A DNA stretch of 64,000 nucleotides from Sedimentisphaerales bacterium (lineage in GTDB: Bacteria > Planctomycetota > Phycisphaerae > Sedimentisphaerales > SM23-30). This document shows, one piece after another, positions 20,206 through 55,562 of this stretch; the first letter of the stretch is position 1, and every line of letters starts with the position of its first letter. Below the pieces are notes generated by a model. It was not told where the DNA came from and ran no database searches. It saw only the letters and a list, made by a program, of their open reading frames with translations. The stretch is from assembly GCA_963666285.1 (NCBI GenBank), contig OY762711.1; one strand, 5' to 3'. A program made the position numbers and the translations under genes.

Positions 20206-20343
20206 TAATATTGGGCTGAAAATAGCAAAAAACACTCATTTTTGGCAGAAAATAAATATTTTATATTTTTTTAGGCAGATTTTATAAATTCAGCTGATTG
20301 TATATAATGAAGCGAATGGTTTTTTTCAGGAATTCTTAAAATA

Positions 20344-20886: not shown

Positions 20887-20889
20887 AAT

Positions 20890-37809: not shown

Positions 37810-37988
37810 TAATTAATTAGCTTGTAAGTAAGTGCGATTTATGCTTCGCATCATATACATGGCGTACTTTCGACTGTTCGTCTCTATATGCAAAGTTATT
37901 TTTGGCAATTAATGCGGCTTGAAATGTGCGGAAGTTAACATATAATAGTTCATAAATAAATGAATTTATATGATAGCGAGTGTGCAAA

Positions 37989-39039: not shown

Positions 39040-39951
39040 TTATGGTGTCATTGTTACAGGTTTGATTAACCCATTTGTGTCGTATTCAAGGTTTTCGACC
39101 GCTGTTTTACGAGATCCGCGATACGGTCCATCTCCAGAAACGTTTTCCCAGCGGTGGTAGAAAATGTACCATTTTTTAGCAGCGTTATCATAGACGATTG
39201 AGTGGTGTCCTGGTCCTTTATAGGCGGCATTGGTTTGGAGAATAGGTCCTTTGTAGTCCCATGGTCCGATGGGTGATTTAGCGGTGCAGTAGTGAACGGA
39301 ATATGAGCTGCTATGCCAGGCGCCGTGGCTGTATGACAGGTAGTATAGCCCATTATAGAAATGCATAAAGGCACCTTCAGTGAAGAAGGGTGGATTTTGT
39401 ACTTCAATTTCTCGTGCTAGCTCAGTCATGTTATTATTGAGTTCAAAAACTTTCAGTTTTGAACCTGCACTGCCGCCAAAGTAAAGGTAGCATATGCCGG
39501 AATTTGGGTCTTCAAATGCCATCGGGTCGATAGCTTCAAAATCAGGAGAGTTGTTGTCTGCGATAAGTGCCTTGCCGCTGTCTTTGAACGGTCCCAGAGG
39601 TGAATTGCCGGTAGCGACACCAATATGTGATGGCTTTGGACCGACCGAATAGTAGAAGTAACAGGTGTTATCTTTACTTATTATTGCCGGTGCCCAGGCA
39701 CTTTTATCTTCCGGAATCCAGTCAATTTTCCTGAAATCCAGTATCGGTTTGTGAGTTTGCCAGTTGACAAGGTCGGTGGAACTGTAAACGTAGAAAAAGT
39801 TGCTTCTGCCTGAGGTTGGGTAGACGTAGAATGTATCACCTATTTTAACAGCATGCGGGTCGGCAGCTCTAAAAATGGGATTTTCGGCGATTGCAGAAAA
39901 ATTAACGGCAAACACAAGGAATGCGAAGTTTAACAATACTTTTATCTTCAT
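39040..39951 (-). CDS. Secreted GH43 glycoside hydrolase
   Basis: Signal peptide; ADP, WAP, IDP, EG and GPGHHS motifs. Confidence 0.92.
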   Translation of the reverse strand: MKIKVLLNFAFLVFAVNFSAIAENPIFRAADPHAVKIGDTFYVYPTSGRSNFFYVYSSTDLVNWQTHKPILDFRKIDWIPEDKSAWAPAIISKDNTCYFYYSVGPKPSHIGVATGNSPLGPFKDSGKALIADNNSPDFEAIDPMAFEDPNSGICYLYFGGSAGSKLKVFELNNNMTELAREIEVQNPPFFTEGAFMHFYNGLYYLSYSHGAWHSSSYSVHYCTAKSPIGPWDYKGPILQTNAAYKGPGHHSIVYDNAAKKWYIFYHRWENVSGDGPYRGSRKTAVENLEYDTNGLIKPVTMTP

Positions 39952-40037
39952 AAATGAGTATTTTATGAGAAACGAAATACAATATCTAACAAAAAATATC
40001 CTGGCCTGAATGGCCGGATGTATCGAGTTTCAATTAA

Positions 40038-40200
40038 AGGCCACCACTAAAAAATCATTTTAAGCGAAAGATGGATCTTTTGCTTGCTGATCTGCGTCAG
40101 ATAAAACCGCGAATATAGCCCAATATGCACGATTTTATCTTTCTTGCCAGTAAACAAAATACCTCACCTTCGCAACAAAAGCAATTTCCAGAGGTCCCCT
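40038..40200 (+). mobile_element. Full-length ~163-bp MITE-like element
   Basis: Imperfect terminal inverted repeats (aggccaccactaaaaaat...atttccagaggtcccct) and internal palindrome agataaaaccg...cgattttatct; closely similar to 42103-42265. Confidence 0.85.
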
Positions 40201-40247
40201 AAAAAGAAAAAGCAGAGTTATCGGTTAATGACAACTCTGCTTATTTA
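40201..40247 (-). terminator. Terminator of ECF cassette 1
   Basis: agcagagtt/aactctgct stem with A-tract on +. Confidence 0.7.
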
Positions 40248-40270
40248 TTGTAGATGATTATAAGATTTTG

Positions 40271-41470
40271 TTAGTTATTGAATACTTCCGGCAGGTCCTG
40301 TTCGGAGCATTCTTCTACTGTCAGATCGCCATAAATGACATGCCAGTTATCAGAATTTTGCGGGTGCCACCAGAAGACAGGAGTTTCAGCTTCGCCGAGT
40401 TTTACACCTTTGCCATTGTAGTACCATTGTCCCTGCCCTTTGTACATTCGAATGAATACCAGTCCCTGGCCCCATTTGGTAGCGATTTCGACCTGCTGCT
40501 CATTTGACAGTTTTTTGTCTTTGAAGGCTTTTTCCATCCGGGTTTGAGCAAACTTGACCATATCTTCAAGTCCGACGCTGTCAGGGAAGAATCCGTCATT
40601 CATAATTTCCGAGGTTAGTCTCAGCATTTCGATGAAGTTTTCTTCTGTGTTGGCAGAGAAATCGATAGCCGTTTTCTGCTCGGTATAACCATCCGGTACT
40701 TCCATACTGAAAACAGATTCATCAATATCGACATTGAACTTGATATTATCACATGTAATAGTAGTATTGGCGTTTTGTTCTATGACCTTGACAGGCATTG
40801 ATGTAGCCGGTTCGATCCAGATTGTAATGGCATATTGCGGTCGGTCTTTTACGGTTGCTTTGTAGACATAATATTCAATGTTATTCTCAGTTTTGTAGCC
40901 AATATCTTCAACCTCGAAATAATCGCTATCGAGAAGTTTTTGCATCAGGTTTTGCATATGGACTAAATAATTCTGGATATTCCCAAGTCCGTCAAGTTTT
41001 ACATAAGTAACAGTTTTTTCTTGAGGAGATATGGTCATTAGCTTCATCTCATTCAGGTCAATTACCATCCTGGCACCTTGAATACCACGTACTTCTCTGA
41101 ATATTTTTTGGCCCATAATAGTATCATTGATGACGGTCTGGTTTTCACCTTCACCGAGTATGATTTCCATTACAGCATTTTTAGCGTTGAGCAACGGTTT
41201 AATAGCATCAGCGAGAGCGATAGAACTGCCGCCGTTTGAGAAAGTCAAAAATATTGAAAGAGCAATAAGTATCACAGCAGCAGCTGCAATTTTAGTAAAT
41301 TTATTATTCATGATTTTACTCCAGTTATTCAACTTGCCGGTTGCTTTGTTTTGGCAAGAGTCTAATTCATTTTTAAGGTTTTCCAGTATATCGCGGTCAA
41401 GTTCCGGGTTGGTCTCAACAACGACGTTTTTCAAGATATTTTCTATATTGTTGTTATCTGCAGGTCTCAT
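40271..41470 (-). CDS. Putative anti-sigma factor (cassette 1): short cytoplasmic domain, one TM, LolA-like domain
   Basis: ATGA overlap with sigma; KIAAAAVILIAL TM; IWIEPATSMPVKV and F..EVPDGY motifs. Confidence 0.8.
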   Translation of the reverse strand: MRPADNNNIENILKNVVVETNPELDRDILENLKNELDSCQNKATGKLNNWSKIMNNKFTKIAAAAVILIALSIFLTFSNGGSSIALADAIKPLLNAKNAVMEIILGEGENQTVINDTIMGQKIFREVRGIQGARMVIDLNEMKLMTISPQEKTVTYVKLDGLGNIQNYLVHMQNLMQKLLDSDYFEVEDIGYKTENNIEYYVYKATVKDRPQYAITIWIEPATSMPVKVIEQNANTTITCDNIKFNVDIDESVFSMEVPDGYTEQKTAIDFSANTEENFIEMLRLTSEIMNDGFFPDSVGLEDMVKFAQTRMEKAFKDKKLSNEQQVEIATKWGQGLVFIRMYKGQGQWYYNGKGVKLGEAETPVFWWHPQNSDNWHVIYGDLTVEECSEQDLPEVFNN

Positions 41471-42009
41471 GAAGTCACCTCACTTTCCATTAGCTTGCGT
41501 AACTTTTCCAGGCCATACTGGCATCGGCTCCGTACGGTTTTAGCCGACACCTTTTGCAGTTTGGCAATTTCTTTATATGTCATTTCTGCCTGAATATGTA
41601 GAACAACAGCTTCCCGCTGCTGGTATGGGATTTCAGCCATGGCCTGGCCTATCAGTTTCATTTCTTCGTTGATGATCAGCCATTTGTCAGGACTTTCTGA
41701 TATTTCCGGTTGGATGTCAGAATTATCCAGGTTAACTGTTGTCTTGTTACTGCTGATACGTAACATTGTTTTGGCCCGGTTGGCCGTACAGGTTGCCAGG
41801 AATGCTTTCAGGCTGCCGCCAGGTTTGTACGATTCAGGCTTTCGCACAAGTGTCAGGAAGACATCCTGTACAGTGTCTTCAGCGGCAGCAGTATTATTCA
41901 GCAGGCCGTAAGCTATTTTCAGCAGTAAATTTTTGTACCTGAGATAGATTATCTCCAGAGCCTGTTGGTTACCCATACGAAGCTGCCGGATAAGTACTTT
42001 ATCTTCCAT
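41467..42009 (-). CDS. ECF sigma-70 factor (cassette 1)
   Basis: AEDTVQDVF region 2; QREAVVLH...TYKEIA...TVRSR region 4. Confidence 0.92.
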   Translation of the reverse strand: MEDKVLIRQLRMGNQQALEIIYLRYKNLLLKIAYGLLNNTAAAEDTVQDVFLTLVRKPESYKPGGSLKAFLATCTANRAKTMLRISSNKTTVNLDNSDIQPEISESPDKWLIINEEMKLIGQAMAEIPYQQREAVVLHIQAEMTYKEIAKLQKVSAKTVRSRCQYGLEKLRKLMESEVTS

Positions 42010-42102
42010 TAGTTACCTCATATGATAGTTACTTAATGATCAATCATCATTAATATAACTACTTTAGTGTGTAAAAGGCCTTAAATAAAATATAAAAGTA
42101 AT

Positions 42103-42265
42103 GGGGCACCTATAAAAAATCATTTTTAGCGAAAGATGGATCTTTTGCTTGCTGGTCTGCGTCAGATAAAACCGTGAATATAGCCCAATATGCAAGATTT
42201 TATCTTTCTTGCCGGCAATTATAACTCCTCACTTTCGCAATAAAAGCAATTTCTAGAAGTACCCT
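42103..42265 (+). mobile_element. Full-length ~163-bp MITE-like element
   Basis: ggggcacctataaaaaat...atttctagaagtaccct; taat on both flanks. Confidence 0.85.
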
Positions 42266-42296
42266 AATGTCTTTATCCCGGATGCTCTAAAATATC

Positions 42297-42325
42297 TTGA
42301 CAAATTTGTAATTTTATTCGATACT
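42297..42325 (+). promoter_or_regulatory. Sigma70-type promoter for rex
   Basis: TTGACA-N17-GATACT. Confidence 0.55.
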
Positions 42326-42413
42326 ATGATATCGATATTGATATTGTTTTCGGTTTGAATAAGATTGTAACTGCATTATTTGCAGAATTTTATATAGATC
42401 AAAAGAGGTCACT

Positions 42414-43055
42414 ATGCCAGAAAAGAAACGCCTGACAAAGCTTCCAACAATAAGAAGGATGCCAATGTACCTTCGCATGCTCAATAAAGTTTTGAGTGAT
42501 GGTATGCAGCATGTATCATCAAACTATCTGGCCGAAGAGCTGGACCTGGAAGCGATAGTAGTCCGTAAAGACCTCGCGGTTGTGGGAATTTTGGGCAAGC
42601 CTCGTGTTGGTTTTGAGGTCAAGCCTGCGATCGAAGCAATAGAGCAGTTTATGAATTTTAACAGCCCGACGGATGCGGTTCTGGTAGGTGCCGGTCATCT
42701 GGGTCAGGCGCTGCTGGGCTATAGTGGTTTTGTCAAGTTTGGTCTAAATATTGTGGCCGCATTTGACAGTAACCCTGATGTTATTGGAACGACCCTGTAC
42801 GACAAACCGGTTTATCCGATGTCTGAGTTTACTCAGAGATGTGAAGTGAATAATATCCAGATAGGCATTCTGAGTGTGCCTGGCAAATATGCCCAGGAAG
42901 TTGCTGATATGATGGTTTCAGCCGGTTTGAAAGGTATATGGAACTTTACCCCTCGTAAGCTGAATGTACCGCCGGAAGTAGTCGTTCAGCGAGAGGATCT
43001 TGCAGAGGGTCTGGCTGAGCTCAGTGTGAAGCTTAGCCGTATGGGACAGGAGTAA
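42414..43055 (+). CDS. rex: Redox-sensing transcriptional repressor Rex
   Basis: PTIRR..Y, VSS..LA, VRKDL, VGAGHLGQAL..Y.GF, IWNFTP. Confidence 0.93.
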   Translation: MPEKKRLTKLPTIRRMPMYLRMLNKVLSDGMQHVSSNYLAEELDLEAIVVRKDLAVVGILGKPRVGFEVKPAIEAIEQFMNFNSPTDAVLVGAGHLGQALLGYSGFVKFGLNIVAAFDSNPDVIGTTLYDKPVYPMSEFTQRCEVNNIQIGILSVPGKYAQEVADMMVSAGLKGIWNFTPRKLNVPPEVVVQREDLAEGLAELSVKLSRMGQE

Positions 43056-43157
43056 GATAAAGCAGCAGAATAGGGTGATTTGCGTGTTTCCTCTAAGATA
43101 GAGTTTTCATAGCGACGCCTCATTAAGCCCTAAAGCAAATGCCAGTACCTATTATTT

Positions 43158-43916
43158 ATGATAAGACTTAACGATACAGAATGGTATTACAACCAGGGAA
43201 TTCAGCGTATTAGTGAAAAGAATTATTCAGGTGCTGTTGAATTGCTTGGAAAACTGATAGAACTTATGCCTGACAATTCTGAAGCTTATTACAGCCTTGG
43301 GGTGGCGTTGTCTAACCTGGGAGAGCATGAGCTGGCATATGAGAACTATCTAAAGGTTGTCGAACTTGACCCTGAATGCAGCGATGCATTATTTAACTGT
43401 GGTCGAACCCTGATAGACCTGGAGAAATTCTGGCAGGCGTGTAAGATGTTCGAAAAGTTTACCATGACCGAACCGGACTCGCCGGAAGGATTTTATTTAT
43501 GGGGCGATTGTTTATGTCGTCTTGGACTGTATCGGCAGGCTTGTGAGAAATATGAGTATTCAGTCGAGTTGGATTCCAGTTTGTTTTTTGTGTATGTCAA
43601 CTGGGGGCTGGCCTTGTTCAACCTGGCATTGGAAACGGAAGAAGGGCCGGAGCGTGCAGAGCTTTTGTACCAGGAGAAGCATAAGTATCAAATGGCTGAG
43701 GACATTGAGCCTGGAGCAGGGAGCTATAACCTGGCATGTGTATATTGCCTGGAGGGCGATCTGGTTTCATGCAGAAGCTGGTTGGAGAAGGCAAGCTTTA
43801 CCGGTCATCTGCCAAGCTGGGAGCATGCCATAAATGATGATGATCTTACACCGGTTAAGCATAAAAAGTGGTTTGTCAAATTAAACTGGCATGCAGAAAT
43901 GAATGAAAAGGAATAA
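43158..43916 (+). CDS. TPR protein
   Basis: Canonical TPR repeats; terminal SYNLACVY...WLEKA...DDDL motif. Confidence 0.85.
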   Translation: MIRLNDTEWYYNQGIQRISEKNYSGAVELLGKLIELMPDNSEAYYSLGVALSNLGEHELAYENYLKVVELDPECSDALFNCGRTLIDLEKFWQACKMFEKFTMTEPDSPEGFYLWGDCLCRLGLYRQACEKYEYSVELDSSLFFVYVNWGLALFNLALETEEGPERAELLYQEKHKYQMAEDIEPGAGSYNLACVYCLEGDLVSCRSWLEKASFTGHLPSWEHAINDDDLTPVKHKKWFVKLNWHAEMNEKE

Positions 43917-43918
43917 AT

Positions 43919-43945
43919 GAAAAAGCCCGCAGCGGATGCGGGCTT
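43919..43945 (-). terminator. Terminator (aaaagcccgc family), possibly bidirectional
   Basis: aagcccgca/tgcgggctt stem between convergent genes. Confidence 0.75.
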
Positions 43946-43952
43946 GAATGAG

Positions 43953-44993
43953 TTAATTAAGCATTTTAATTGTTGTCCGTGCGTTTCCTTTAAATGTTTT
44001 CTGTTTTTGCTGCTGCCACAATCTATCGTCAATATCAGCATCATAGGTGACAGAAGCTTTGATATCATAATTTTTGAAGAGCCCGGTTTTTAGATCCACT
44101 TCAATTTCGCCTTGGCCGGAAATGTTGTAATTATCGCTTACCCGTGCAATAGCATTACCATCGGTCGGGTCGTCACCAGCTCTAACAGACACCTTGGCAT
44201 TGAAGAAAGCCGAGTTGTTATTGATTTTAGCTAATTCCATTTCGGTTACTACGTAGCCATCCCTGGAGGTGCTGGCTCTTTCGGTAGTAATCCAGGTATT
44301 ACCGATTTTGAGCGGTTTGTCCGGATAGCGTCTGGGCAGAGAAGGAAACATGTTTTCCTTGCTTTCCCAGACGTCATCAAGCATGTTTTCCAGTTTACTT
44401 TCATAGTAGTCCATATCATCATCGGTATAGTCTTTTTTATCTACGCCTTTTTCATAGAGGATCGCATCAGCAAGGACATTACCATTCCATATCTCCCCGA
44501 TTTCACCGTCCGGCATGATCGCCAGCTTAATATAGTTATTGATCAGCCTGCGCCATCTTTTGAGATAATCCGGTGCTCTTTGATTCTGAGTTGAGTCCCA
44601 TTTGTATGTGCCATCGGCACCTTTACCTTTGATCCAATCCTGGGAGATTATACAAGCTCCGTCAGAAGGGTCTATTTCCAGACATTCGATTGCAAATTCA
44701 ATTTCATACCAGTAGCGAATACGGTTACTGGTAATCCTGCTTTTATTCTGCTCGGTCATATCCATTTCTTCGCGAATAGAAAATGTGTGACGTTCACCTG
44801 GCTCCATTTTGAATTTTATCACAGCAGTCGTCGGTCTGGCCGGAGCCGGTTTAACGACAGGCGGGGTGTTGGCTGCGGGATTGTCTGTTTGATTTTCGGT
44901 TGCGGAAGGTTCATCTTTACTGCATGACGGTATAGCGCAGAGAAATATAACGGCAAAAAACAGGAAGGTAACTTTGATAAGGTAATTTTTCAT
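43953..44993 (-). CDS. Lipoprotein, beta-rich (DUF6263-like, tentative)
   Basis: Likely start MKNYLIK at 44993; lipobox IPSC; Pro-rich linker; YPDKPLKIGNTW, VDLKTGL. Confidence 0.7.
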   Translation of the reverse strand: MKNYLIKVTFLFFAVIFLCAIPSCSKDEPSATENQTDNPAANTPPVVKPAPARPTTAVIKFKMEPGERHTFSIREEMDMTEQNKSRITSNRIRYWYEIEFAIECLEIDPSDGACIISQDWIKGKGADGTYKWDSTQNQRAPDYLKRWRRLINNYIKLAIMPDGEIGEIWNGNVLADAILYEKGVDKKDYTDDDMDYYESKLENMLDDVWESKENMFPSLPRRYPDKPLKIGNTWITTERASTSRDGYVVTEMELAKINNNSAFFNAKVSVRAGDDPTDGNAIARVSDNYNISGQGEIEVDLKTGLFKNYDIKASVTYDADIDDRLWQQQKQKTFKGNARTTIKMLN

Positions 44994-45196
44994 ATTTTTC
45001 CCTTTCATAAATTAACGGGTGAAATTGCATAACAGATTATTATTTTATGCTTTTAGAAAAGAGTTTCAATATGAAAATGAGTGAAAAGTCAATGCGTGTA
45101 CGTAAGTTTTTGTATTTGTGTAGTTTACGGCAGATTGTTGGTAAAAGAAAAGCCCGCAGGAGGTTACGGGCTTAAAAGAATTTAATTTGCAGATAG

Positions 45197-46498
45197 TTAT
45201 TTAGGTAAGTCTTCAAGAGCTATATCTTTGATGGTCAAATCTCCGAAAATAACCCGATATAATTTTGAATTATCTAATTTCCACCAATAGAGAGGTTTTT
45301 CGGCATCACCTAACATGACTTGTCCGGTGGAAACGTTCCAATTTTCTTGTAGAACAATTTTTTCTTCAACAAATGCAGCTGCCCACCTTGCCGTTTCTAA
45401 AAAATTAGTAGCATCATAGTATTCCTGTTTAGGATCTTTTCCCTTATAAAATTTCTTCATAATCATTTGCTTTATTATATTGGGATCCATTAGTTTGGTT
45501 ATATCTACCGGGAGAATTCCATCAGACATCTCAGCCCATAATTGTAACATATCAATTAATTCAGTTTCATTTGGCTCAGATGTAGAAAATGTCTGTTCAT
45601 GCAGCTCGTATCCGTCAGGAATAGATGTTGAAAATAACTCAGGTTCCAAATCAATATTCCATTCGAAGTCAGTCATAACTTGTTTGGTATATTCTGGAGT
45701 ACAGCTTCCAGATAACCTTCCGCTTACAGACTTAGATTCATTATAGCCAAAGTCTTTAGAATTAATACTTATGTTTTTGATTGGAAAATATTTTTTATTT
45801 GTAGGCGGTATTCGTTCTGATACTACTTTTATAGGCAGTTTAGTTTCCACGTTTATCCAGATTTTTGTATTAGAATACTGCAGCGGCTGTGTATCTTGAT
45901 AAATTTCTACTTCGATTTCATCTATTATCTCATAACCAATAAAGCTTATGTTTCCTTTTTCATGTCGTGAAGCAAGAAAATCTAATGAATTAAAAAGTTT
46001 AATGAAGGGTTGTGGGGCTCTTTTTGATCGATATGCAGTTTTACTATTAGTATTTAATTGGAGTTGGATTCCATTTTTAAAATCAAATATTTGAACATCA
46101 CCAGTATTAGAAAAAGCGTGTCGCTCCACTCCACCGGCATTTATCATGACTTCATTGGACCAGGTAAAATCATTAACTACAGTCTTGCAATGATAATGAA
46201 CGCTTTTTGCCTTTTTTATTTGCTCAACTACATCTGCCCAGGCGATAGTAGCACCATCGGGCGATACGCCGGAGCGATTGAAGGTAATCAGCAGGGCGAT
46301 GAGTATCACTGCCGCTGCGGCAAGTTTGGTTAATTTGTGTTTCATGATTGTTATTCCAATATTTACAGGCTGTTTGGCAGCCGTTTTAGTTTTGTTTGAT
46401 TGCTCCTGAGCCTGTAAAATAGCTTTTAAGCCATCTTCATGTTTGCGGCTGTCAGGAGTGACGTTTATATTTGATAATATTTTTTCTACATTATTCAT
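45197..46498 (-). CDS. Putative anti-sigma factor (cassette 2)
   Basis: TKLAAAAVILIAL...SPDGATIAWADV; IWINVETKLP; LFSTSIPDGY; C-terminal domain shared with cassette 1. Confidence 0.8.
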   Translation of the reverse strand: MNNVEKILSNINVTPDSRKHEDGLKAILQAQEQSNKTKTAAKQPVNIGITIMKHKLTKLAAAAVILIALLITFNRSGVSPDGATIAWADVVEQIKKAKSVHYHCKTVVNDFTWSNEVMINAGGVERHAFSNTGDVQIFDFKNGIQLQLNTNSKTAYRSKRAPQPFIKLFNSLDFLASRHEKGNISFIGYEIIDEIEVEIYQDTQPLQYSNTKIWINVETKLPIKVVSERIPPTNKKYFPIKNISINSKDFGYNESKSVSGRLSGSCTPEYTKQVMTDFEWNIDLEPELFSTSIPDGYELHEQTFSTSEPNETELIDMLQLWAEMSDGILPVDITKLMDPNIIKQMIMKKFYKGKDPKQEYYDATNFLETARWAAAFVEEKIVLQENWNVSTGQVMLGDAEKPLYWWKLDNSKLYRVIFGDLTIKDIALEDLPK

Positions 46499-46499
46499 A

Positions 46500-47036
46500 T
46501 TACACCTGCCTTTCTAACAGACAGCGAAGTTTGTCCAGTCCATAGCGGTACCTGCTTTGAACGGTTTTAATAGATACGTTTTGCTGTTTGGCGATCGCTT
46601 TGAATTTCATCTGGCCCCTGGTATGAAGAATAACCACTTCACGCTGCTCGAAAGGCAGCTTGTTCAGGGCCTTGTTAACCAGCTGCATTTCTTCGTTACA
46701 GATAGCTGAAGCTGACGGCGTTTCTGAGCAGCACGATATGTTTTCAGCACATTCCAGCCCAACTGCCTGCCGTTTATTCATTCTCAGGCGATCTTTGGCA
46801 CGGTTTGCGACGCATGTTGCCAGGTACCATTTCAAACTGCCTTCAAGCTTAAGTTTGTCAGCAGACTGGGCAAAAGAGACAAAGAAATCATGCACCATAT
46901 CTTCAGCGGTGTTAATATCATTAACCAGCCCCATAGCCAGGGTGAGCAGGTAGGCATGATATTTTTCGTATATCCGCTGCAAAGCGGCACTGTCGCCTCG
47001 CCTGAACTTGTATATCAGTAACCTGTCTTCGAGCAT
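46500..47036 (-). CDS. ECF sigma-70 factor (cassette 2)
   Basis: AEDMVHDFF; LPFEQREVV; TVQSRYRYGLDKL. Confidence 0.92.
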   Translation of the reverse strand: MLEDRLLIYKFRRGDSAALQRIYEKYHAYLLTLAMGLVNDINTAEDMVHDFFVSFAQSADKLKLEGSLKWYLATCVANRAKDRLRMNKRQAVGLECAENISCCSETPSASAICNEEMQLVNKALNKLPFEQREVVILHTRGQMKFKAIAKQQNVSIKTVQSRYRYGLDKLRCLLERQV

Positions 47037-47214
47037 CTAAAACCGTTCTTTATAAAGAGTTAGATTTTTTATCCAATTGGACCAACTATTGTCATAATAT
47101 ATCACGATTCGGCCTGGCTTTTTACTCTAAAAAAAAGAAATATTTATAAAAAAACCTGCAAGTGTGTAGCTTGCAGGCTTAGTGAACTAAAAATTATATG
47201 TCAGTATGCCGATT

Positions 47215-48516
47215 CTATTCCGATTGAACCGGGGCTAATGAGTTAACCAGGTCTTTCAGCATTTCGTCTGAGACCGGACGGTTAGCTGCCATTCCGATAA
47301 CCACCTCATCTGGCATAGTGATCATACGAGTCTGCCGTTGGTCGCTAAGCTCAAATTCAGCAAAATCCGGCATATCTTTGGAAAAACCTTCAAGGAAATA
47401 CTTAGCGTATTCTTTGCCGTTTGGATGAGTATAGACTTTTATTTCAGGGCCGGATTCCAATACCAGCTGCTGATTGAAAATCCAGATCATTCTGCCGGTA
47501 TCATAATAGTTTCCCTGGATAAGTAATATATTATTGTCATCAATTGTATTTAATGCCGTGATATAGCTTATAGCCCGGCTACCCAGGGGATCTATGGTCT
47601 GTACGGTCATGATATCGGTTACCCAGGGTAAGTTGCCAATCGTGTATGCTGTGTGATTTAAACCGGCCTGGATTTCATTAGCTGATATTTGTTTTGGCTC
47701 CACAGGTCGATAGTCATTTATTATTGTCTCTACCACATAGCCTTCAGGAACTTTGGTGCTGAAATCTTCCGGGTCGTATTCAAAATCAAATTCGAAATTA
47801 TCCATATAGATCATATTTTTCATTTTTGGATGTCTAAGTTCTATTTCGACAGGTAATTTAGTACCGGTATCTACCCAGACGGTGAAGTCATTATGTTCGT
47901 TTGGCTTGTGTCTGAAGCCGTAGAGATTTTTTCCGTCAACTTCTTTGGTTCCAAGCCTTTCGGTAGATTCCTGATCAAAGCGCTTAACCATATCTATAAT
48001 GTCTGGGTCTTTTTTGGGGCCGTAGCCGAGCATTTTGGTAACAACAGCTTTCTGTTCGTCCGGTTTCAACTCGACAAGTATGGCGTCTTCATTTTGCATG
48101 TCGATGATATGGATAGTACCGTCTTCGACTTCCTGGCGTCTAAGTGACAGATTGACATGGATCACCTCCATAGTTGGCAGATCCGTTCCGTTATCAACGA
48201 TAACTCTCTGTCTACATTTGTATTTTTCATAGTTATTCAGCTGCTTGACGACATCGGCCCAGGCGATAGTAGCACCATCGGGCGATACACCGTTATGGTT
48301 AAAGGTAATGATCAGAGCTATAAGAATTACCGCGGCGGCAGCTAGTTTTGTTATATTATTTTTCATGATATGTTTCCATTTATTTTCGGCCAAAAGCTCT
48401 TTGTTTCTTTTTTTCTGCAGTTGAATTGCATCGGAAAGGATCTCATCTTGCTTTTGGGCTCTAGGGTTTACATTAAAATTTGTTATTAAATCTGATATGT
48501 TATTAAAAGGCTTCAT
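47215..48516 (-). CDS. Putative anti-sigma factor (cassette 3)
   Basis: Same TM hinge; VWVDTGTKLP; FSTKVPEGY; distinct distal domain. Confidence 0.8.
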   Translation of the reverse strand: MKPFNNISDLITNFNVNPRAQKQDEILSDAIQLQKKRNKELLAENKWKHIMKNNITKLAAAAVILIALIITFNHNGVSPDGATIAWADVVKQLNNYEKYKCRQRVIVDNGTDLPTMEVIHVNLSLRRQEVEDGTIHIIDMQNEDAILVELKPDEQKAVVTKMLGYGPKKDPDIIDMVKRFDQESTERLGTKEVDGKNLYGFRHKPNEHNDFTVWVDTGTKLPVEIELRHPKMKNMIYMDNFEFDFEYDPEDFSTKVPEGYVVETIINDYRPVEPKQISANEIQAGLNHTAYTIGNLPWVTDIMTVQTIDPLGSRAISYITALNTIDDNNILLIQGNYYDTGRMIWIFNQQLVLESGPEIKVYTHPNGKEYAKYFLEGFSKDMPDFAEFELSDQRQTRMITMPDEVVIGMAANRPVSDEMLKDLVNSLAPVQSE

Positions 48517-49055
48517 TTGATCACCTCATTATTTAGTAGTGTTTTGAGCTTGTCGAGTCCGTATCGATATCGACTCTGGATAGTATTGATAGAGGTATCG
48601 GTAGATTTTGCTATCTGGGCGAAAGTCATACCTGCCAGCAGGTGCAGCGTTACCGCTTCTCTCTGCTCATAGGGCAGTTTAGCCAGTGCTTTATTGATAG
48701 CTATAGTCTGTTCCTGCTGCTGGGCCAGAAGTACCGGCTCCGGATATTCGGTTTCTATCGCACAGCTGCCTTCGAGAGCAGCCGGTTCCAGCTTTCTGCG
48801 TTTAAGCTTGTTTTTGGCGATATTTGCCACACAAACAGCAGAATATGCCTTAAAACTGCGGTTCAACTTGATTGAGTCAGCCGACTGGACCAGCAAGACA
48901 AAGAAATCATGCAGAGCATCTTCCGCCGCATGGGTATCATTGAGCAACGCTGTCGCCACCGAGGTCAGGTACACCTTATGTTTGGTGTAAATCCTTTCCA
49001 GGGCGATAGTTGAACCTCGCTTGAATCTCCATAACAATATTTTATCTTCCAGCAT
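48513..49055 (-). CDS. ECF sigma-70 factor (cassette 3)
   Basis: AEDALHDFF; LPYEQREAV; TIQSRYRYGLDKL. Confidence 0.92.
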   Translation of the reverse strand: MLEDKILLWRFKRGSTIALERIYTKHKVYLTSVATALLNDTHAAEDALHDFFVLLVQSADSIKLNRSFKAYSAVCVANIAKNKLKRRKLEPAALEGSCAIETEYPEPVLLAQQQEQTIAINKALAKLPYEQREAVTLHLLAGMTFAQIAKSTDTSINTIQSRYRYGLDKLKTLLNNEVIK

Positions 49056-49158
49056 TATTACCTCTATTTTTAACGTAAAGAATGATCATCCATCATTATA
49101 CATACAACTGAGCAGCTGGAATTAGTCTAAAATATTCTGATTTTCCCAATATTAATAG

Positions 49159-49190
49159 AAAAAGCCCGCAAGAGAGGAGTGCTGCGGGCT
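49159..49190 (-). terminator. Terminator of cassette 4 (near-identical to 51705-51734)
   Basis: aaaaagcccgcaagagaggagtgctgcgggc. Confidence 0.8.
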
Positions 49191-49266
49191 GGATAATTTA
49201 ACCGATTGTCAGTTCTAAATGGTACTTCGCATTTTGTTCCTGATTCATACGGTTAGTTTGAGTAAT

Positions 49267-51051
49267 TTAGTTCAACTTGTATTTAGGATATCGCCCTCGC
49301 CAGCTTGGCCCCTTAAATGATTTAATAGTTCTGAGATATCTAAAATCTTCTGTATCCATTTGATTATACGATTTGTAAATGCTGCTGTTAAACCCCTTAT
49401 GATTCAGCAATTGTGTTTGTGTTTTTTTAATGTCCGGCAGGAAGTTATTCCATCCGCCCGCATCGGCATTTTCTATTATCCAATCTACAGTTGATAACGC
49501 AGATTCGTAGTTGTCCAAATTCTGGTATAATTGAACCAAGTCATTTGCACATGCAAAATGCTGCCAGCATGGCGGGGTTTCATTATTGATTTTACCGACT
49601 AGTATATTAAACTGTTTGGTTTTTAGCTCTAACAGTTCTTTATTAAGCATAATGTTTTTCGTTCTTATGAAGTTCCCTTTATCATCAAGAGAGGTATACA
49701 CTGTTGGTTCCAGGGTTTGTATTGATTCTACTAATTCATCAATAATGTCAGCATTGTGTTGGTCTCTTTCGTATGCTATTTCACATAAGACTCTTGCCAT
49801 ATATCCATATTGATACGATTCATGTGACAATAAACCGCCAACCATCCAAAACTTATCTCTTAGCAGCTGCGCTATATATAACAGTTCAGTTTCAGGCAGA
49901 CTTTCATAGTCAATAGCTAACTGGATTTGTTCTAGAATATCTTGCCTGACAGTATGGTATTTTGGCCATTGTTGTTGTATTCTGTCTTGATCCAATAATA
50001 ACTCTTCTAATTTGTCTGTATTATTACTCGGCATAAATTCACGGATGTCGGTATTTGCGAGTGTTTCAATTTTTTCGCTGGCACTATTATCATAAATTAA
50101 ATATGTAAGTCCGATTTCGTCAAGATATGACAAATCTAATGGTTCAACTTTTTGGGGTTTTGCCAGATTTTTCTTGACCGAAGACTTTTTAATCAAATGG
50201 TAATTATCAGGAATTACCGGCGTAAAATCTTTTGCTGTAAATACTGGATTCCATTGAAATTCACACATAACGTAATTGACAACTGGACCATTATTAATCT
50301 TGTAGTTTGTTTCTACTAAAAAAGGCAATTCTGTTTTAACGTCAATCCATAGAGTTGATTCATAGTAATCATACCTGTTTTTTGAATTATTATTTGCCGA
50401 CGATGATAAATGTATGCCTTCAACTACATTTCCATCAATAACCTTTCGGCCAATATTCAAATGTTCACTTTTGCTGTAATTGTCAATTATGTATCTTGGA
50501 GCAAACCAGTCCATACTATCACTATCCCAATCCTCCTGCCGATAATGATTCATTAAGTGACTGATAACATAGAATTTATTTGTTTGCCTAAGAAAATATG
50601 ACTGTCCTGATAGATTATCATCATGATAACTTTCAGTCTTCTTTCCAAACTCTTTGCTATAATACTTTTCTTTTATGTATTTCAGTTTAATTTCTGCACT
50701 TTCCGGCTTTAGTCTTTCATGTGTTTCTGTGCGATACTCTTTGTAAGAATAAGATTCAATATTACCTATTTTTGTAAAGACATCTGCCCAGGCGATAGTA
50801 GCACCATCCGGTGATACGCCATTATGGTTAAAGGTAATGATCAGGGCGATAAGAATAACCGCGGCGGCGGCCATTTTGGTAAGGTTTAGTTTCATGAGCT
50901 TACTCCATTTTTTGTCGCCGGTCGACTGGATGGGAGTATTTAGTATAGCCTGTTTTGCGTTTTCGATATTAGCCCTGGCTTTTTGGTCGCTGATCTCAAA
51001 ATTACCGATCTCATTTAAACAATCTATGATATATTTTTCATCTTTATGCAC
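49267..51051 (-). CDS. Putative anti-sigma factor (cassette 4)
   Basis: Same TM hinge; LWIDVKTELP; FTPVIPDNY; extra helical C-terminal domain; likely GTG start overlapping the sigma end. Confidence 0.8.
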   Translation of the reverse strand: MHKDEKYIIDCLNEIGNFEISDQKARANIENAKQAILNTPIQSTGDKKWSKLMKLNLTKMAAAAVILIALIITFNHNGVSPDGATIAWADVFTKIGNIESYSYKEYRTETHERLKPESAEIKLKYIKEKYYSKEFGKKTESYHDDNLSGQSYFLRQTNKFYVISHLMNHYRQEDWDSDSMDWFAPRYIIDNYSKSEHLNIGRKVIDGNVVEGIHLSSSANNNSKNRYDYYESTLWIDVKTELPFLVETNYKINNGPVVNYVMCEFQWNPVFTAKDFTPVIPDNYHLIKKSSVKKNLAKPQKVEPLDLSYLDEIGLTYLIYDNSASEKIETLANTDIREFMPSNNTDKLEELLLDQDRIQQQWPKYHTVRQDILEQIQLAIDYESLPETELLYIAQLLRDKFWMVGGLLSHESYQYGYMARVLCEIAYERDQHNADIIDELVESIQTLEPTVYTSLDDKGNFIRTKNIMLNKELLELKTKQFNILVGKINNETPPCWQHFACANDLVQLYQNLDNYESALSTVDWIIENADAGGWNNFLPDIKKTQTQLLNHKGFNSSIYKSYNQMDTEDFRYLRTIKSFKGPSWRGRYPKYKLN

Positions 51052-51580
51052 TTTTGCTACCCTCCTTTTTTATTGGGGTAGAGTTTATTTTTGATACGAT
51101 ATCACGCAGTTTTGCGATAGCTTTTGAACATGTCGAGCGCAAATGGCTTGCTTTTTTGTCCAGTCGAACAGCGATCTGGTCATAGGTTAACTGTTCTACA
51201 TAATGTAAGTAAATAACGTTTCGGTCCAACTCTTTCAAACCAGATATTGAGTCAAGAACATGTTCGAGCTGCTCATTTTTGATTATTTTGTCAATAACCG
51301 ATGAGCTTTGGTCGCATATTTCAGCGGCATTATCCAAAGTCACAGTCTGGATTTTTCGTTTTCTACGCCAGTCAAACGCGAGGTTTGCTGCCGAACGCCA
51401 GGCATAGGCATACGGGTTATCCGCTTTTTCTATGCCTTTGGTACTTACCAGTTTGACAAATAAATCCTGCAGCAGATCGCCCGCGGTATGTTCGCAGCGA
51501 GTAATCCGCCCGAGCATACGGTGCAGGGATGAGCCATGCTCATCTAACAGGTTCATAACTAATTGCCGGCGTTTTTCCAA
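51044..51580 (-). CDS. ECF sigma-70 factor (cassette 4)
   Basis: TTG start with AAGGA SD; AGDLLQDLF, NLAFDWRR, LTYDQIA. Confidence 0.9.
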   Translation of the reverse strand: MEKRRQLVMNLLDEHGSSLHRMLGRITRCEHTAGDLLQDLFVKLVSTKGIEKADNPYAYAWRSAANLAFDWRRKRKIQTVTLDNAAEICDQSSSVIDKIIKNEQLEHVLDSISGLKELDRNVIYLHYVEQLTYDQIAVRLDKKASHLRSTCSKAIAKLRDIVSKINSTPIKKEGSKSA

Positions 51581-51704
51581 GAAATTTCCTTCTTATTCGA
51601 GGTTTGTATCCTCATATGTCTGTTTTCGTTGGCCTTCATATAGACTGACGCATCTAATATACATTGCGCACCTGAAATTTACACTTATTTATTCGTTTAA
51701 ATAT

Positions 51705-51736
51705 AAAAAGCCCGCAAGAGGGAGTGCTGCGGGCCT
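51705..51736 (-). terminator. Terminator of cassette 5
   Basis: aaaaagcccgcaagagggagtgctgcgggc. Confidence 0.8.
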
Positions 51737-51757
51737 AAAAATTGGTTCTATTATATC

Positions 51758-51920
51758 AGGCAACTTCTGAAAATTCATTTTGAGCGACAAGTTTTTCTTT
51801 TGCCTGCTGACATGCGTCACATAAAACAGTGAATATAGCACAATATGCACGGTTTCACGTTCCTTGGCAGCAAATAAAATCTTAAACTATCGAATCAGGA
51901 GCAATTTCCAGAGGTCTCCT
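51758..51920 (+). mobile_element. Diverged full-length MITE-like element between the anti-sigma stop codon and its terminator
   Basis: aggcaacttctgaaaattcattttgagcga...gaatatagcacaatatgcac...gcaatttccagaggtctcct; same length as the other full copies. Confidence 0.8.
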
Positions 51921-53725
51921 TATTGTTTATTTTGAATAATATATTGCGGGTCGAACAGAGTATCGTCAATCTCTGGATTTTCGATTATGGTTATGAACTT
52001 GTCCGGTTTGAGATCATAGTTATAATCACAGTCGTAAATCATATCGTTAAATTGTTTTTCGGCTATTATAGTTGCATACCATTGGCCAGTGCTGGTATTT
52101 TTATATTTTTTCATTTCAGTAATGATAAAATATTGATCACTGTAACCATTATTATCCGTAACATCTTTAAGCCAGTCTTTATCCTGCTGCCATTGTCCAT
52201 CTTTTTTGTATTCTAGTACTTTTCGATGGCAAATATAATCTTTTGATGGATCAAGGTAGTATTTACTTCGTAATGGATGGTATATTATTTTTCCTTTGTA
52301 GCTATTTCCATTTTCAAGGCTTTGTATGCAAATGAAGTTATTATTAAGGCTATAACTATCTTCTATAACAGACAATTTTATTCTATGATCGCTGTCTTCT
52401 AATATTTGGTCTGGCCAGTATTGCATAACAATGTCAATCCATGGTTCGTGTTTATAGCCCGGTAGTTTAGAAAGTTCTTTTTTATGACTTAATATCCAGT
52501 TATTGTTTGTAAGGTCTTGTAAGTTTGATTTATTTTCCAGTTCGTAACTATATACTTCATCGAATATTTCTATGTTATCAGTGTAATATCTAAATTTACC
52601 GATTTCTTTAGCTGTTTTGACAATATAATTGTAATCATACAGTGTGTTTTCTCTAAAAAGAATGTCGTCAATATTTTCAGGAGTCGGTTCTGGTGTATAA
52701 ATATCATCTATACGAACTTTTTTACCGGAATGGTAGATCATGTAATATCTATATGTCTTTTCTTTTATTATTGTTACTCTTTTATCTGGGAATGCATCTC
52801 TGGCATTACGATATTTATCTAGTTTTTCCAGTAGCTGATCGTTAGTGTTATCTATAATATTTGCATCAATGGGAACTCCGAGGTTGTATATGTCATTTGG
52901 CCCGTTTGAGGGATAGTCAAATGCTATTGTGATATCGGTTACTGAGTCTGAGTTGTCTGCATATATTGCCAGTTCGCTAAGAAGATTTATGGTTTGATTT
53001 ATCTTAATTTTTATAATAGCTTTTTTGCATATTGTTGCTGCGTTTTCTTTGCGGATGGCAGTATGTGTTATTTCGACAAATTTCTGCCCGTTAATTGTTG
53101 ATTCAGTGTTTTTAGTTTCTATGTCGAAATTAATAGGTTCCAGCATTGCAACAATCATTTCTACAAAAGTCTCGGTAAATTCTGCTGGATTTCCCGGCAT
53201 TGCTGCAAAGGCGTTACTGGTAGAGATATAATTGCTAACTGTTATAGTATTGCTGTCAGGAGCGTATTGGTATTTGATGTGATCTTTTTTGAATGAGACG
53301 CTATTGTCATATTTTGTTTCTGATTCAATATTTAGTGGCTTGGAATACCAGAATTCTTTATTTTCGTTTATGTCTGGTGATGAAGTGCGGCAGTGAATCC
53401 ACATGGCATTAGACATGTTGTCAATGGATTTCATTACATCGGCCCAGGCAATCGTCGCGCCATCGGGTGATGCTCCATTATAGCTGAAAGTCAGTATAAG
53501 TGCGATTAGTATTACCGCCGCGGCAGCGAGTTTGAAAAGGTTATTCTTCATGATAAATCTCCATTTGGCCGCAGGGATGCTGCGGTTTTTGGTTTTCGAT
53601 TGAAACCGGCAAACAGAATCCGGGTGGGCCTGCTGCCATTTGTCAAAATCGAACTTCAGCTCGTTACGGCCGAATGTACTGGAGATGAGTTCGTCAAAAT
53701 TGTCATGTCTATCGGAAGGATTCAT
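51920..53725 (-). CDS. Putative anti-sigma factor (cassette 5)
   Basis: FDFDKWQQAHP cytoplasmic domain; KLAAAAVILIAL...SPDGATIAWADV; AT-rich large extracytoplasmic region. Confidence 0.8.
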   Translation of the reverse strand: MNPSDRHDNFDELISSTFGRNELKFDFDKWQQAHPDSVCRFQSKTKNRSIPAAKWRFIMKNNLFKLAAAAVILIALILTFSYNGASPDGATIAWADVMKSIDNMSNAMWIHCRTSSPDINENKEFWYSKPLNIESETKYDNSVSFKKDHIKYQYAPDSNTITVSNYISTSNAFAAMPGNPAEFTETFVEMIVAMLEPINFDIETKNTESTINGQKFVEITHTAIRKENAATICKKAIIKIKINQTINLLSELAIYADNSDSVTDITIAFDYPSNGPNDIYNLGVPIDANIIDNTNDQLLEKLDKYRNARDAFPDKRVTIIKEKTYRYYMIYHSGKKVRIDDIYTPEPTPENIDDILFRENTLYDYNYIVKTAKEIGKFRYYTDNIEIFDEVYSYELENKSNLQDLTNNNWILSHKKELSKLPGYKHEPWIDIVMQYWPDQILEDSDHRIKLSVIEDSYSLNNNFICIQSLENGNSYKGKIIYHPLRSKYYLDPSKDYICHRKVLEYKKDGQWQQDKDWLKDVTDNNGYSDQYFIITEMKKYKNTSTGQWYATIIAEKQFNDMIYDCDYNYDLKPDKFITIIENPEIDDTLFDPQYIIQNKQ

Positions 53726-54258
53726 TTTTCACCCTCCTTATCTATGGTTTTCTTCAGTGTGTTTTCGAGTTTCTTTCGAATTCTGCATAATTTTGCATTT
53801 ACAGCAGCCGGTGTCATTCCGGCGATTTCAGCGATCTGGTCGTGAGATAGATTCGCAAAGTATCTGAGCATAACCAGTTCGCGAGATTTCTCCGGCAGTT
53901 TCAATATTGCCTTGTGCAGATCGTCATGCAGGGCAGTATCTTTGCTTTCTGGTGCTGCTAACTGCCCGGCATCTTCGATTGCTGCTGTTCGTTTTTGCTG
54001 CCGGGCTATGTTTATCGCGGTATTGCGGCATATAGTCTTGAGCCAGCCGGTGAATTTCTCCGGTTTTCGCAGGTCGGGCAGCTTCTCCAGGGCACGGGCG
54101 TACGCTTCCTGCACGGTATCTTCTGCCAGATGCCGGTCATGCAAGATGCAGTAAGCAATTGCCGCCATTGCCGGGTAATAACGCTCACACAGCATGCCGA
54201 AGCTTGCCAGATCACCTTTTATCGCCGATTCTACTTGTTTTACCTGTTCGAGCTCTAT
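53722..54258 (-). CDS. ECF sigma-70 factor (cassette 5), probable non-canonical ATA start
   Basis: Frame is open upstream of ATG 54195: IELEQVKQVESAIKGDLASFGMLCERY; ATA at 54258 with GGAG 7 nt upstream gives 178 aa, like its neighbours. Confidence 0.85.
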   Translation of the reverse strand: MELEQVKQVESAIKGDLASFGMLCERYYPAMAAIAYCILHDRHLAEDTVQEAYARALEKLPDLRKPEKFTGWLKTICRNTAINIARQQKRTAAIEDAGQLAAPESKDTALHDDLHKAILKLPEKSRELVMLRYFANLSHDQIAEIAGMTPAAVNAKLCRIRKKLENTLKKTIDKEGEK

Positions 54259-54412
54259 TCGATTGCTCCGTTTGTCAATATTATTGTTTCTACCATATAG
54301 ACAAGTGATGCTGTAAATATGATCGCAAAAAATATATATAAATCACGAAAAAGCAATTTTAGTTATAAGTGTCTTAGTTTCAAGTATTAATAGTAGAAGG
54401 TTTCATGTGTAT

Positions 54413-54442
54413 TTGACATATTGGTTTAAATGTACTTAGAAT
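54413..54442 (+). promoter_or_regulatory. Sigma70-type promoter
   Basis: TTGACA-N18-TAGAAT about 50 nt upstream of 54492. Confidence 0.55.
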
Positions 54443-54491
54443 AACTAATGTAGTCTGTATTTGCATACTATTATTTGAAAGTGGGGCTATT

Positions 54492-55562
54492 ATGAAGTGT
54501 GTTTGTAGATTATTTGTCGGTCTTATACTGGTATTTGGGAACCTGGATGCAGGTCAGGTCTTTTTGAATGACGGTGATCACCACTTGGTTGATGATGATC
54601 GGTATGATGGTGATGATGTATTTCTGGATGACGGTGTTTCTGTATATCCAGGTACTCATCTTGAACTGGAATCTCCAGGTGTAATAGGCGGGTTTGTTGT
54701 TGGTTATAATAACAGCAGGATAACTATTACAAGTGGCGGGCTAAGCGGAGTTTCAGCAAAAGGAAATTGTAAGGCGGTTATTAATGATGGGATAGTTGCA
54801 TTGGCAGCTCACGTTGATGATTCTGCAGAATTAAGGATTAACGGTGGAACAATTGGTGGAATGAGTGGAGAAGGTGTTGAAGCCTGGAATAATGGCTATG
54901 CCGACATTCATGGTGGATCACTTCATGGTCTGTTGCGAACATGGGGTGATGGATTTATCGAACTGCATGGAGCTTTTAGTGTTGATGGAAATGTTCTTTC
55001 GAATTACGAAAGTTTACGAAATTACGGTACATTAGTGGCAACTGCTGATGGGGAGTGGCAAACCGGCATTGTTACCGGCAGGCTTGCAGATGGTACGATA
55101 ATTGAAAGCGAATACTTTATAATGGTGTTCAATTATTGGGGGCCAACGTCAAATGGTGATATTGTTGTATATATAGAGCCGCTAATAAGCAGTGTTGTTC
55201 CCGATGGAGGAGAGGTATTTGTTGCCGGAGATCAGGCTGAGATCAAGTGGTACTGTAAGGCTGGAATTGAGACGGTCAAATTGGAATATTCTGCAGACTT
55301 TGGCCAAACGTGGTTTGATATTGCATCAGTTCCAGCGTCAGATATGTCATATTTCTGGACAATTCCTCAAATTAACTCTCAATTTTGTCTCATAAGAATA
55401 TCTGATTTTGAAGTTCCATTTATAAGCTCAGTAAGTGGCGATTCTTTTACAATATATATATGTCCGCTGGATTCTGATTTGACAGGTGATTGTAAGGTAA
55501 ATATGCAGGATCTGGCAGTATTTGTTAGTGAATGGCTAATTGATGCCAATCCGTTTCAATAG
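54492..55562 (+). CDS. Secreted protein: Gly-rich beta-repeat region, Ig-like domain, dockerin-like C-terminus
   Basis: Signal peptide; repeated I.GG.I/L units; PDGGEVF..G....IKW...LEYS.D.G.TW; DLTGDCKVNMQDLA...WL. Confidence 0.75.
   Translation: MKCVCRLFVGLILVFGNLDAGQVFLNDGDHHLVDDDRYDGDDVFLDDGVSVYPGTHLELESPGVIGGFVVGYNNSRITITSGGLSGVSAKGNCKAVINDGIVALAAHVDDSAELRINGGTIGGMSGEGVEAWNNGYADIHGGSLHGLLRTWGDGFIELHGAFSVDGNVLSNYESLRNYGTLVATADGEWQTGIVTGRLADGTIIESEYFIMVFNYWGPTSNGDIVVYIEPLISSVVPDGGEVFVAGDQAEIKWYCKAGIETVKLEYSADFGQTWFDIASVPASDMSYFWTIPQINSQFCLIRISDFEVPFISSVSGDSFTIYICPLDSDLTGDCKVNMQDLAVFVSEWLIDANPFQ

Follow-up and report, generated by a model that had tools for sequence, protein, structure and literature searches.

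Several described systems resemble the two-gene cassettes considered here, in which a gene for an extracytoplasmic function (ECF) sigma factor is paired with that of a partner carrying one transmembrane (TM) segment. Five such cassettes lie at positions 40,271 to 54,258 of a 64,000-nt stretch of Sedimentisphaerales bacterium DNA (contig OY762711.1), referred to as the window; the TM region that connects the cytoplasmic and outer halves of each partner is called the hinge or joint. The sigma-V/RsiV pair of Bacillus subtilis (ECF30, DUF4179) shares with the cassettes a short cytoplasmic segment, one TM segment and, directly following it, an amphipathic helix that holds a signal-peptidase-type site, as set out in the available parts of two papers (PMC6066255, PMC8844934); those parts describe neither a nested start nor shuffling for RsiV. 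The cassettes also differ in that their outer domain has the LolA/RseB fold and in that their joint is common to at least 11 multi-member sigma types. DUF4179 matched weakly in 7 of 59 cassette members (best E 0.0026), never reaching the cut-off; none lay above it in the own genome, and control genomes likewise stayed below it in the same search.

The sigma-E/RseA/RseB and AlgU/MucA/MucB systems (ECF02) also combine an ECF sigma, a single-pass anti-sigma and a periplasmic LolA-fold protein. RseB, however, is the product of a separate gene, whereas the RseB-like domain of the cassettes is in frame with the anti-sigma domain (ASD) and would be both tethered and free. ECF213 s4/s7 and other planctomycete groups have a putative one-TM anti-sigma at +1 (Casas-Pastor 2021, PMC7826278, as far as the accessible text goes). 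Compared by description only, the ECF213 text names no partner domain, and the term LolA is absent from that paper and from the accessible part of its supplement. The cassettes span 15 sigma clusters, so that one ECF group would not be expected to cover them all. Bacterial N-terminal proteoforms (reviewed in PMC13515050) provide a parallel for one frame giving two products via an internal ribosome-binding site. In the accessible part of that review, no anti-sigma or membrane/secreted sensor pair occurs; the cassette start, by contrast, recurs throughout the family and falls on a recombination joint.

An earlier note on this DNA had not recognised the array as a described system. That view held in the literature searched, where no account of the architecture was found, with two planctomycete surveys outside the coverage and ECF groups compared by text only; no paper was found that combined Phycisphaerae, ECF and anti-sigma. 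Two features were not found described: a family-wide nested start for a secreted protein and, coinciding with it, a recombination joint. On balance, one gene probably provides both a membrane anti-sigma and a shorter, exported LolA-fold copy, with its halves reshuffled at the joint.

Composition of the array and exchange of its modules

The co-oriented array was borne out, with five sigma/partner pairs (S1/AS1 to S5/AS5) located where the earlier note had placed them, all on the minus strand. All five sigmas matched PF04542 and PF08281/PF04545, with TIGR02937 above cut-off, and are minimal (group 4) ECFs of about 180 aa with sigma2 and sigma4 domains only. The length of 178–180 aa first given for them applies to S1–S4. 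S5 reaches 178 aa only from an ATA codon at 54258, which has a GGAG 7 nt upstream (54256–54269) and is probably a non-canonical start; its first ATG gives 157 aa. S1–S3 are 40–50% identical to one another, and S4 and S5 are 23–29% identical to these and to each other. By pairwise identity and separate clustering, the "two or three" subtypes suggested before became three: type 0 (S1–S3), type 4 (S4) and type 2 (S5). The proposal that each cassette has its own terminator also stood, as a U-tailed hairpin was present 3' of all five; three were recovered by scan, and the folding energies of the five range from −14 to −18.5 kcal/mol. No FecR domain was matched in the five partners, which places them outside the FecI/FecR type.

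A wider cassette set was compiled from 136 retrieved loci and six regions of the own genome. The 221 hinge hits, 218 of them with a sigma directly upstream, were reduced to 205 unique cassettes by removing 16 that were duplicates or had no upstream sigma. One of the 205 was gapped at the Met column, leaving 204 for comparison, and congruence tests used the 112 in which the sigma was complete and the proximal domain was delimited by the profile. Sigma and partner genes abut or overlap, the overlap being 4 nt in 103 of the 205. At 40% identity the sigmas formed 15 clusters, 11 of which had three or more members. Each sigma type shown came with a cytoplasmic segment particular to it, and one of these segments is a zinc-finger ZAS. 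Judged from sequence, the partner is very likely the anti-sigma of its sigma, and it would also act as an envelope sensor.

Comparison of the separate modules showed that the sigma tracks the cytoplasmic segment and not the periplasmic part. Sigma distances correlated with ASD distances at rho 0.45 and with periplasmic distances at rho −0.09, and the nearest neighbour was of the same sigma type in 108 of 112 cassettes by ASD and in 33 of 112 by periplasm. The most common distal domain (65 cassettes) was found with 10 sigma types, and periplasms as much as 86% identical (over 315 aa) sit behind sigmas that are 19% identical. In a quick periplasm tree, the sigma labels needed 55 changes, the minimum being 11.

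The position of the switch was mapped at the DNA level. For 48 pairs with the same periplasm and different sigmas, identity was 0.23–0.33 upstream of −18 and 0.71–0.82 past the A-x-A motif at the end of the hinge. For 68 pairs with the same sigma and different periplasms, it was 0.65–0.87 up to +45 and at background past A-x-A. Of 98 co-located pairs, 72 had their longest identical run inside the hinge. Within the array, identical hinge runs measured 32 nt (AS2/AS3), 29 nt (AS2/AS4) and 23 nt (AS3/AS4), the first of which is likely a conversion or crossover tract. A congener was found to join an S4-type sigma (66% identity) and ASD (49%) to an AS5-type periplasm (40% over 78 aa, no match to AS4), in a contig that ends after 81 residues. 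In one other sample, a contig matched S5 and ASD5 as far as 53549, at the internal ATG, followed by 1753 unmatched letters and then S4; this hints at a recombinant, and sequence below 85% identity would look alike. The earlier proposal of exchangeable output and input parts is thus upheld by the incongruence of the modules and by a crossover zone that could be mapped, which together refute simple whole-cassette duplication. The sigma and outer halves have, with high probability, been shuffled at the hinge, and the exchange likely proceeded by homologous recombination within a joint of 60–130 nt.

The output module includes, in addition, a type-specific promoter-like motif, with each of sigma types 0–6 having its own upstream consensus. 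A type-0 matrix trained on 84 upstream regions, from relatives only, placed the S2 site top on the 6.15-Mb contig (26.1; runner-up 20.7). The type-2 and type-4 matrices ranked their own site first among nine own cassettes. A genome-wide regulon search with the matrices gave no clear target beyond the S2 promoter. Cassette autoregulation appears likely, and that a sigma acts on its own cassette only can be put forward as a weak inference. A perfect 8-bp palindrome was also observed within 80 nt of the sigma start in 73 of 88 type-0 and 14 of 16 type-2 cassettes (about 30% in shuffles; e.g. L068, L046 and L101), possibly an operator or 5' hairpin.

The hinge, its probable nested start and the outer domains

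The hinge had been regarded as a shared TM anchor. It is indeed shared, but is more than a plain anchor, since it also holds a nested translation start and a signal-peptide-like segment. Its consensus is W-R-x-I-M-K-S-x-I-T-K-L-AAAA-VIIIAV...V-A-W-A, followed by D/Q/E. The in-frame Met codon is ATG in 187 of 204 cassettes. Upstream of it, conservation acts on the bases: positions −11 to −8 are G, G, A and G in 96, 91, 87 and 84%, respectively, spelled by Trp, Arg or Gly codons. A Shine-Dalgarno (SD) tetramer precedes the hinge ATG in 179 of 187 cases compared with 76 of 1859 other Met codons, and the spacing is 7 nt in 155 of the 172 cassettes with GGAG. Pairing with the 16S tail had a median of −6.4 kcal/mol at the hinge ATG and −1.9 kcal/mol at 2025 other internal Met codons, and the hinge start region was weakly folded (−1.6 vs −4.8).

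Because codons are homogenised across the whole joint, conservation of the SD was tested for its independence in four ways. The SD was kept after de-replication (54 of 61 at <70%, 23 of 25 at <60%) and in 72 of 80 non-consensus copies. Among synonymous choices, Arg at −4 was AGG in 33 cassettes and CGG in 1, and Arg at −3 was AGA in 147 of about 150 compared with 23% AGA elsewhere; the Fisher test for the latter ran on 147:2, and at least one further CGG exists, which leaves the picture unchanged. Where the start codon was gone, the SD was also gone in 6 of 7 cases; with a near-cognate or shifted start, it was kept in 7 of 10. ATG and SD were found together in 6 of 19 distant sigma-paired homologues, in unrelated DNA. 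In the own genome, hinge-type partners had the ATG in 8 of 8 and the SD tetramer in 5 of 8, whereas just one of the 46 remaining sigma partners showed a nested start. For about 12 of 120 database homologues, the gene call itself begins at the hinge start region. That the internal start is productive and gives a short form is therefore considered likely on these sequence features.

The n-region after the hinge ATG has a net charge of +1 to +4 in 187 of 187 cases and is followed by a hydrophobic core. Small residues occupy −3 and −1 (A-x-A) in 191 of 204 cassettes, and the site lies in an amphipathic helix (hydrophobic moment 0.52 vs 0.26 shuffled). Peptidases of families S26 and M50 are present. 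By eye, A-x-A is retained in 10 of 13 distant homologues without an internal start, so the long form probably makes use of it as well. Where the helix begins, a run of Ala is reminiscent of cryptic ClpXP tags in other anti-sigmas. The abstract of one report (10.1101/491043) speaks of an ssrA-like degron. By analogy with RsiV, gated cleavage at A-x-A by signal peptidase is the reading that we moderately favour.

For the outer part, the LolA/RseB-like segment proposed in the earlier note was confirmed as a fold on the AS1 model and, at lower confidence, on that of AS5. The hinge and the W-x-x-x-x-T-x-(L/M)P and F...P..Y motifs were seen in four of five partners; AS5 lacks the motif, yet its model also matches LolA (mean pLDDT 67). 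The AS1 periplasm model had a mean pLDDT of 91.7, and a fold search with residues 1–183 returned LolA (E 2e-9) and RseB (E 6e-9). VIA gave a Bacteroides LolA-family protein at Z 13.7 (rmsd 4.6, 169 aligned), LprG at 12.8 and RseB at 8.6. Sequence identity to RseB was 10–12%. The placement came from fold search alone, as a PDB sequence search with the periplasm profile gave 0 hits at E 1; the Pfam family MucB_RseB was not matched in the periplasmic domains. LolA/RseB-type folds bind hydrophobic cargo. For the commonest distal domain, the fold-search rows span residues 1–183 only and thus barely cover it, and its Atlas matches were only unnamed Planctomycetota clusters, under 0.9. The distal part of AS4 gave a tetratricopeptide repeat (TPR) match at 0.87, as a lead only.

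Proposed mechanism and competing explanations

In the mechanism proposed, the long form would hold the sigma at the membrane and, by analogy with RsiV, keep A-x-A buried in the amphipathic helix; the site would become accessible once the LolA/RseB-fold domain has bound its ligand, which is probably hydrophobic. Binding would lead to a signal peptidase I cut and then to an M50 protease cut in the Ala-rich helix, by which the sigma would be freed. The freed sigma would mainly re-transcribe its own cassette and so yield more short form. Once exported, the short form could carry that ligand, act as a sink for it or serve as a decoy, setting the threshold or ending the response. Crossovers at the joint, the pattern of which was mapped above, would rewire the input-to-sigma wiring. 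Closure of these steps into a self-contained feedback loop is conceivable, at odds somewhat short of even. A fuller version, more tentative again, takes the cassettes as self-contained sense-and-sequester devices from a combinatorial library. In it, one frame would give a tethered receptor and a free effector for one ligand, and each sigma type would have a promoter to itself and act chiefly on the cassette that encodes it. The joint, common to all, would combine the roles of translation start, export signal, protease switch and crossover zone, so that cells could connect any of at least 11 sigma/promoter outputs with a thousand or more LolA-fold inputs.

Should the short form be produced, the family would have a single gene for a transmembrane receptor and its own soluble ectodomain, and no such anti-sigma design was found in the literature searched. 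The mechanism, if true, would carry the gating of anti-sigmas by signal peptidase beyond Firmicutes into a diderm phylum, and ECF circuits would be rewired by recombination at a defined joint, contrary to the one-group-one-regulator view. The cassette set also offers sigma, ASD and promoter parts as candidate orthogonal components, and with them a natural fusion point.

A number of observations weigh against this mechanism. The evidence for self-targeting comes down to a single site (S2), because the type-0 matrix scored only 4.6 for S1, 5.9 for S3 and −2.8 for a sixth type-0 cassette, and because the type-2 and type-4 own sites ranked below 24 other genomic hits, in a ranking made without a shuffled control. 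Conservation of the SD may partly be hitch-hiking, given the homogenised joint codons (top Ala codons 47–73%), and the cassettes are not independent samples. AS2 and AS3 of the array itself have only GGAA (−3.3 kcal/mol). The start is absent in 13 of 19 distant homologues, so the architecture can dispense with it. The signal-peptide-like segment is 33–37 aa long in 178 of 204 cassettes, with a long polar stretch before A-x-A, and cleavage may be slow or absent; conversely, free cutting of the short form leaves unexplained why the long form stays uncut. Some sigma–periplasm co-inheritance also remains, with 80 of 192 best hits compared with 24% by chance and the 55 label changes in the quick periplasm tree below the shuffled mean of 61.6.

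The question of the uncut long form would disappear if the gene were an RseA and an RseB in one, with A-x-A cut constitutively in both forms and the free domain, together with the short form, shielding the ASD–TM stub until ligand strips it away. The fold matches RseB and MucB, which protect RseA and MucA and are displaced by lipopolysaccharide, according to the accessible part of PMC7593790. The stub, however, would present only some 15 polar residues for binding in the periplasm, conservation of the amphipathic helix around the site recalls the gated RsiV, and periplasms are freely swapped against stubs; this arrangement is accordingly judged improbable. We also think it rather unlikely that there is a single product, a shuffled RsiV-like anti-sigma in which the internal SD and ATG are an unused relic of a fusion between ASD and secreted-protein genes, kept by gene conversion. 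Homogenised joint codons, identical tracts of up to 53 nt between paralogues and the A-x-A in 10 of 13 start-less distant homologues (by eye) would all fit. Against a relic stand the persistence of the SD in diverged copies via different codons, with AGG favoured over CGG, its loss together with the start codon and its presence in unrelated distant DNA.

Dual starts are used by holin/antiholin genes, and a dual start without cleavage could here make the short form a membrane-anchored, ASD-less decoy that pairs or competes with the long form, the signal being conformational or relayed by another protease. The length of the segment, its distant A-x-A and the identical anchor in both forms agree with this, but small residues at −3/−1 in 191 of 204 cassettes would be needless for an uncleaved anchor, and the probability assigned is low. 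Least plausible of all, and by a wide measure improbable, is a site-specific recombination site at the joint, acted on by a dedicated recombinase that shuffles the arrays. The sharp crossover zone and the tandem arrays would suit such an enzyme. None was found when the 36 largest of the recurring neighbour families (484 clusters in all) were scanned, 7 of the 36 having no match at 1e-15; the identical tracts shift position across the joint, and among the joints listed for runs containing the array (contigs only) none was at a hinge.

Feature coordinates, neighbourhood and distribution

Table 1. Coordinates in the window of the five cassettes and their elements.
Feature	Position	Strand
ECF sigma S1, 180 aa, type 0	41467..42009	-
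Partner AS1, 399 aa: 53-aa cytoplasmic segment, hinge, LolA-fold domain 40676-41209, distal domain without known family	40271..41470	-
AS1 nested start: GGAG within 41318-41323, ATG 41309-41311, signal-peptide-like segment to A-L-A (41210)	41210..41323	-
Cassette 1 terminator-like hairpin	40210..40242	-
Type-0 bipartite promoter-like motif upstream of S2	47099..47131	-
ECF sigma S2, 178 aa, type 0	46500..47036	-
Partner AS2, 433 aa: cytoplasmic segment, hinge, LolA-like domain 45599-46234, distal class as in AS1	45197..46498	-
AS2 nested start: weak GGAA, ATG 46343-46345, signal-peptide-like segment to A-W-A	46235..46357	-
32-nt AS2 tract identical to AS3 48257-48288, synonymous sites included	46236..46267	-
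Cassette 2 terminator-like hairpin	45150..45173	-
Type-0-like motif upstream of S3, weak matrix score 5.9	49099..49131	-
ECF sigma S3, 180 aa, type 0	48513..49055	-
Partner AS3, 433 aa: LolA-like domain 47728-48255; periplasmic family found behind five sigma types	47215..48516	-
AS3 nested start: weak GGAA, ATG 48364-48366, signal-peptide-like segment to A-W-A	48256..48378	-
Cassette 3 terminator-like hairpin	47152..47180	-
Type-4 promoter-like motif upstream of S4	51639..51673	-
ECF sigma S4, 178 aa, type 4	51044..51580	-
Partner AS4, 594 aa: LolA-like domain 50191-50784, helical distal part (TPR-like, weak lead)	49267..51051	-
AS4 nested start: GGAG, ATG 50893-50895, signal-peptide-like segment to A-W-A	50785..50907	-
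Cassette 4 terminator-like hairpin	49155..49190	-
Type-2 promoter-like motif upstream of S5	54296..54329	-
ECF sigma S5, type 2, 178 aa (probable ATA start) or 157 aa (first ATG)	53722..54258	-
Partner AS5, 601 aa: LolA-fold periplasmic part; distal class also in 1491-residue frame at G000:C1:5536448	51920..53725	-
AS5 nested start: GGAG, ATG 53549-53551, signal-peptide-like segment to A-W-A	53441..53563	-
Cassette 5 terminator-like hairpin	51700..51745	-

The cassettes are widespread in one lineage, chiefly Sedimentisphaerales-type Phycisphaerae. The hinge profile matched in 28 of 41 genomes of the relatives search, own genome counted, and at 76 further loci with titles mostly of Sedimentisphaerales, Phycisphaerae or metagenome-assembled genomes labelled Pirellulales by assembly. 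A hinge-plus-domain profile matched in 15 of 201 genomes across the phylum and gave 1160 protein clusters (50% identity) at E up to 1e-30 and 4999 at 1e-10. The array is not unique, as a co-oriented neighbour cassette lay within 3.5 kb in 106 of 204 cases (retrieved loci). In relatives, the commonest array neighbour was the Obg GTPase gene (18 loci, e.g. L090:11125-12117), which suggests a fixed array site in one clade.

The own genome had 7 hinge matches and 61 sigma-profile hits. Two more hinge-type cassettes lie at G000:C1:5533886-5541348, where one partner is a 1491-residue multidomain frame ending in the AS5 distal class. About 35 further ECF sigmas of this genome have single-TM partners of 540–620 aa with one look, e.g. 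at 20311–22551 of the window (C1:852311-854551); this second expansion is FecR-like by eye and the nested start is absent from it. Elsewhere, at L062:46-1470, the hinge and a LolA-like domain follow a multi-TM N-terminus of 240 residues, not a short cytoplasmic segment, and the upstream gene is past the contig end. Several of the longer family members (575–596 aa; P0001, P0029, P0058, P0063 and similar) showed two matched stretches in the profile search, which suggests tandem LolA-like domains.

Cassette 1 is separated from the other four by three short genes, for a Rex-like regulator (a label inferred from PF06971 and PF02629), a TPR protein and a DUF6263 protein. The array is accessory, because two near-complete congeners have the Rex-like and TPR genes and no hinge match. 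Rfam gave 0 matches across 39900–54600 of the window, and a sigma-70 promoter scan was at chance (42 vs 42.5). An intergenic repeat of 164 bp is present at 40039–40202, 42104–42267 and 51759–51922, two direct copies flanking cassette 1. On the chromosome it recurs 58 times at near-full length, and one congener likewise has many copies; the repeat is without an Rfam match and resembles a miniature inverted-repeat transposable element. As a cassette-specific recombination site it was ruled out, since the 58 near-full copies are spread over the whole chromosome. Apart from the cassettes, an open reading frame at 37980–39008 gave a strong match to PF09994, the catalytic domain of Tle1-like phospholipases of the type VI secretion system, and is convergent with a GH43 gene beside the array.

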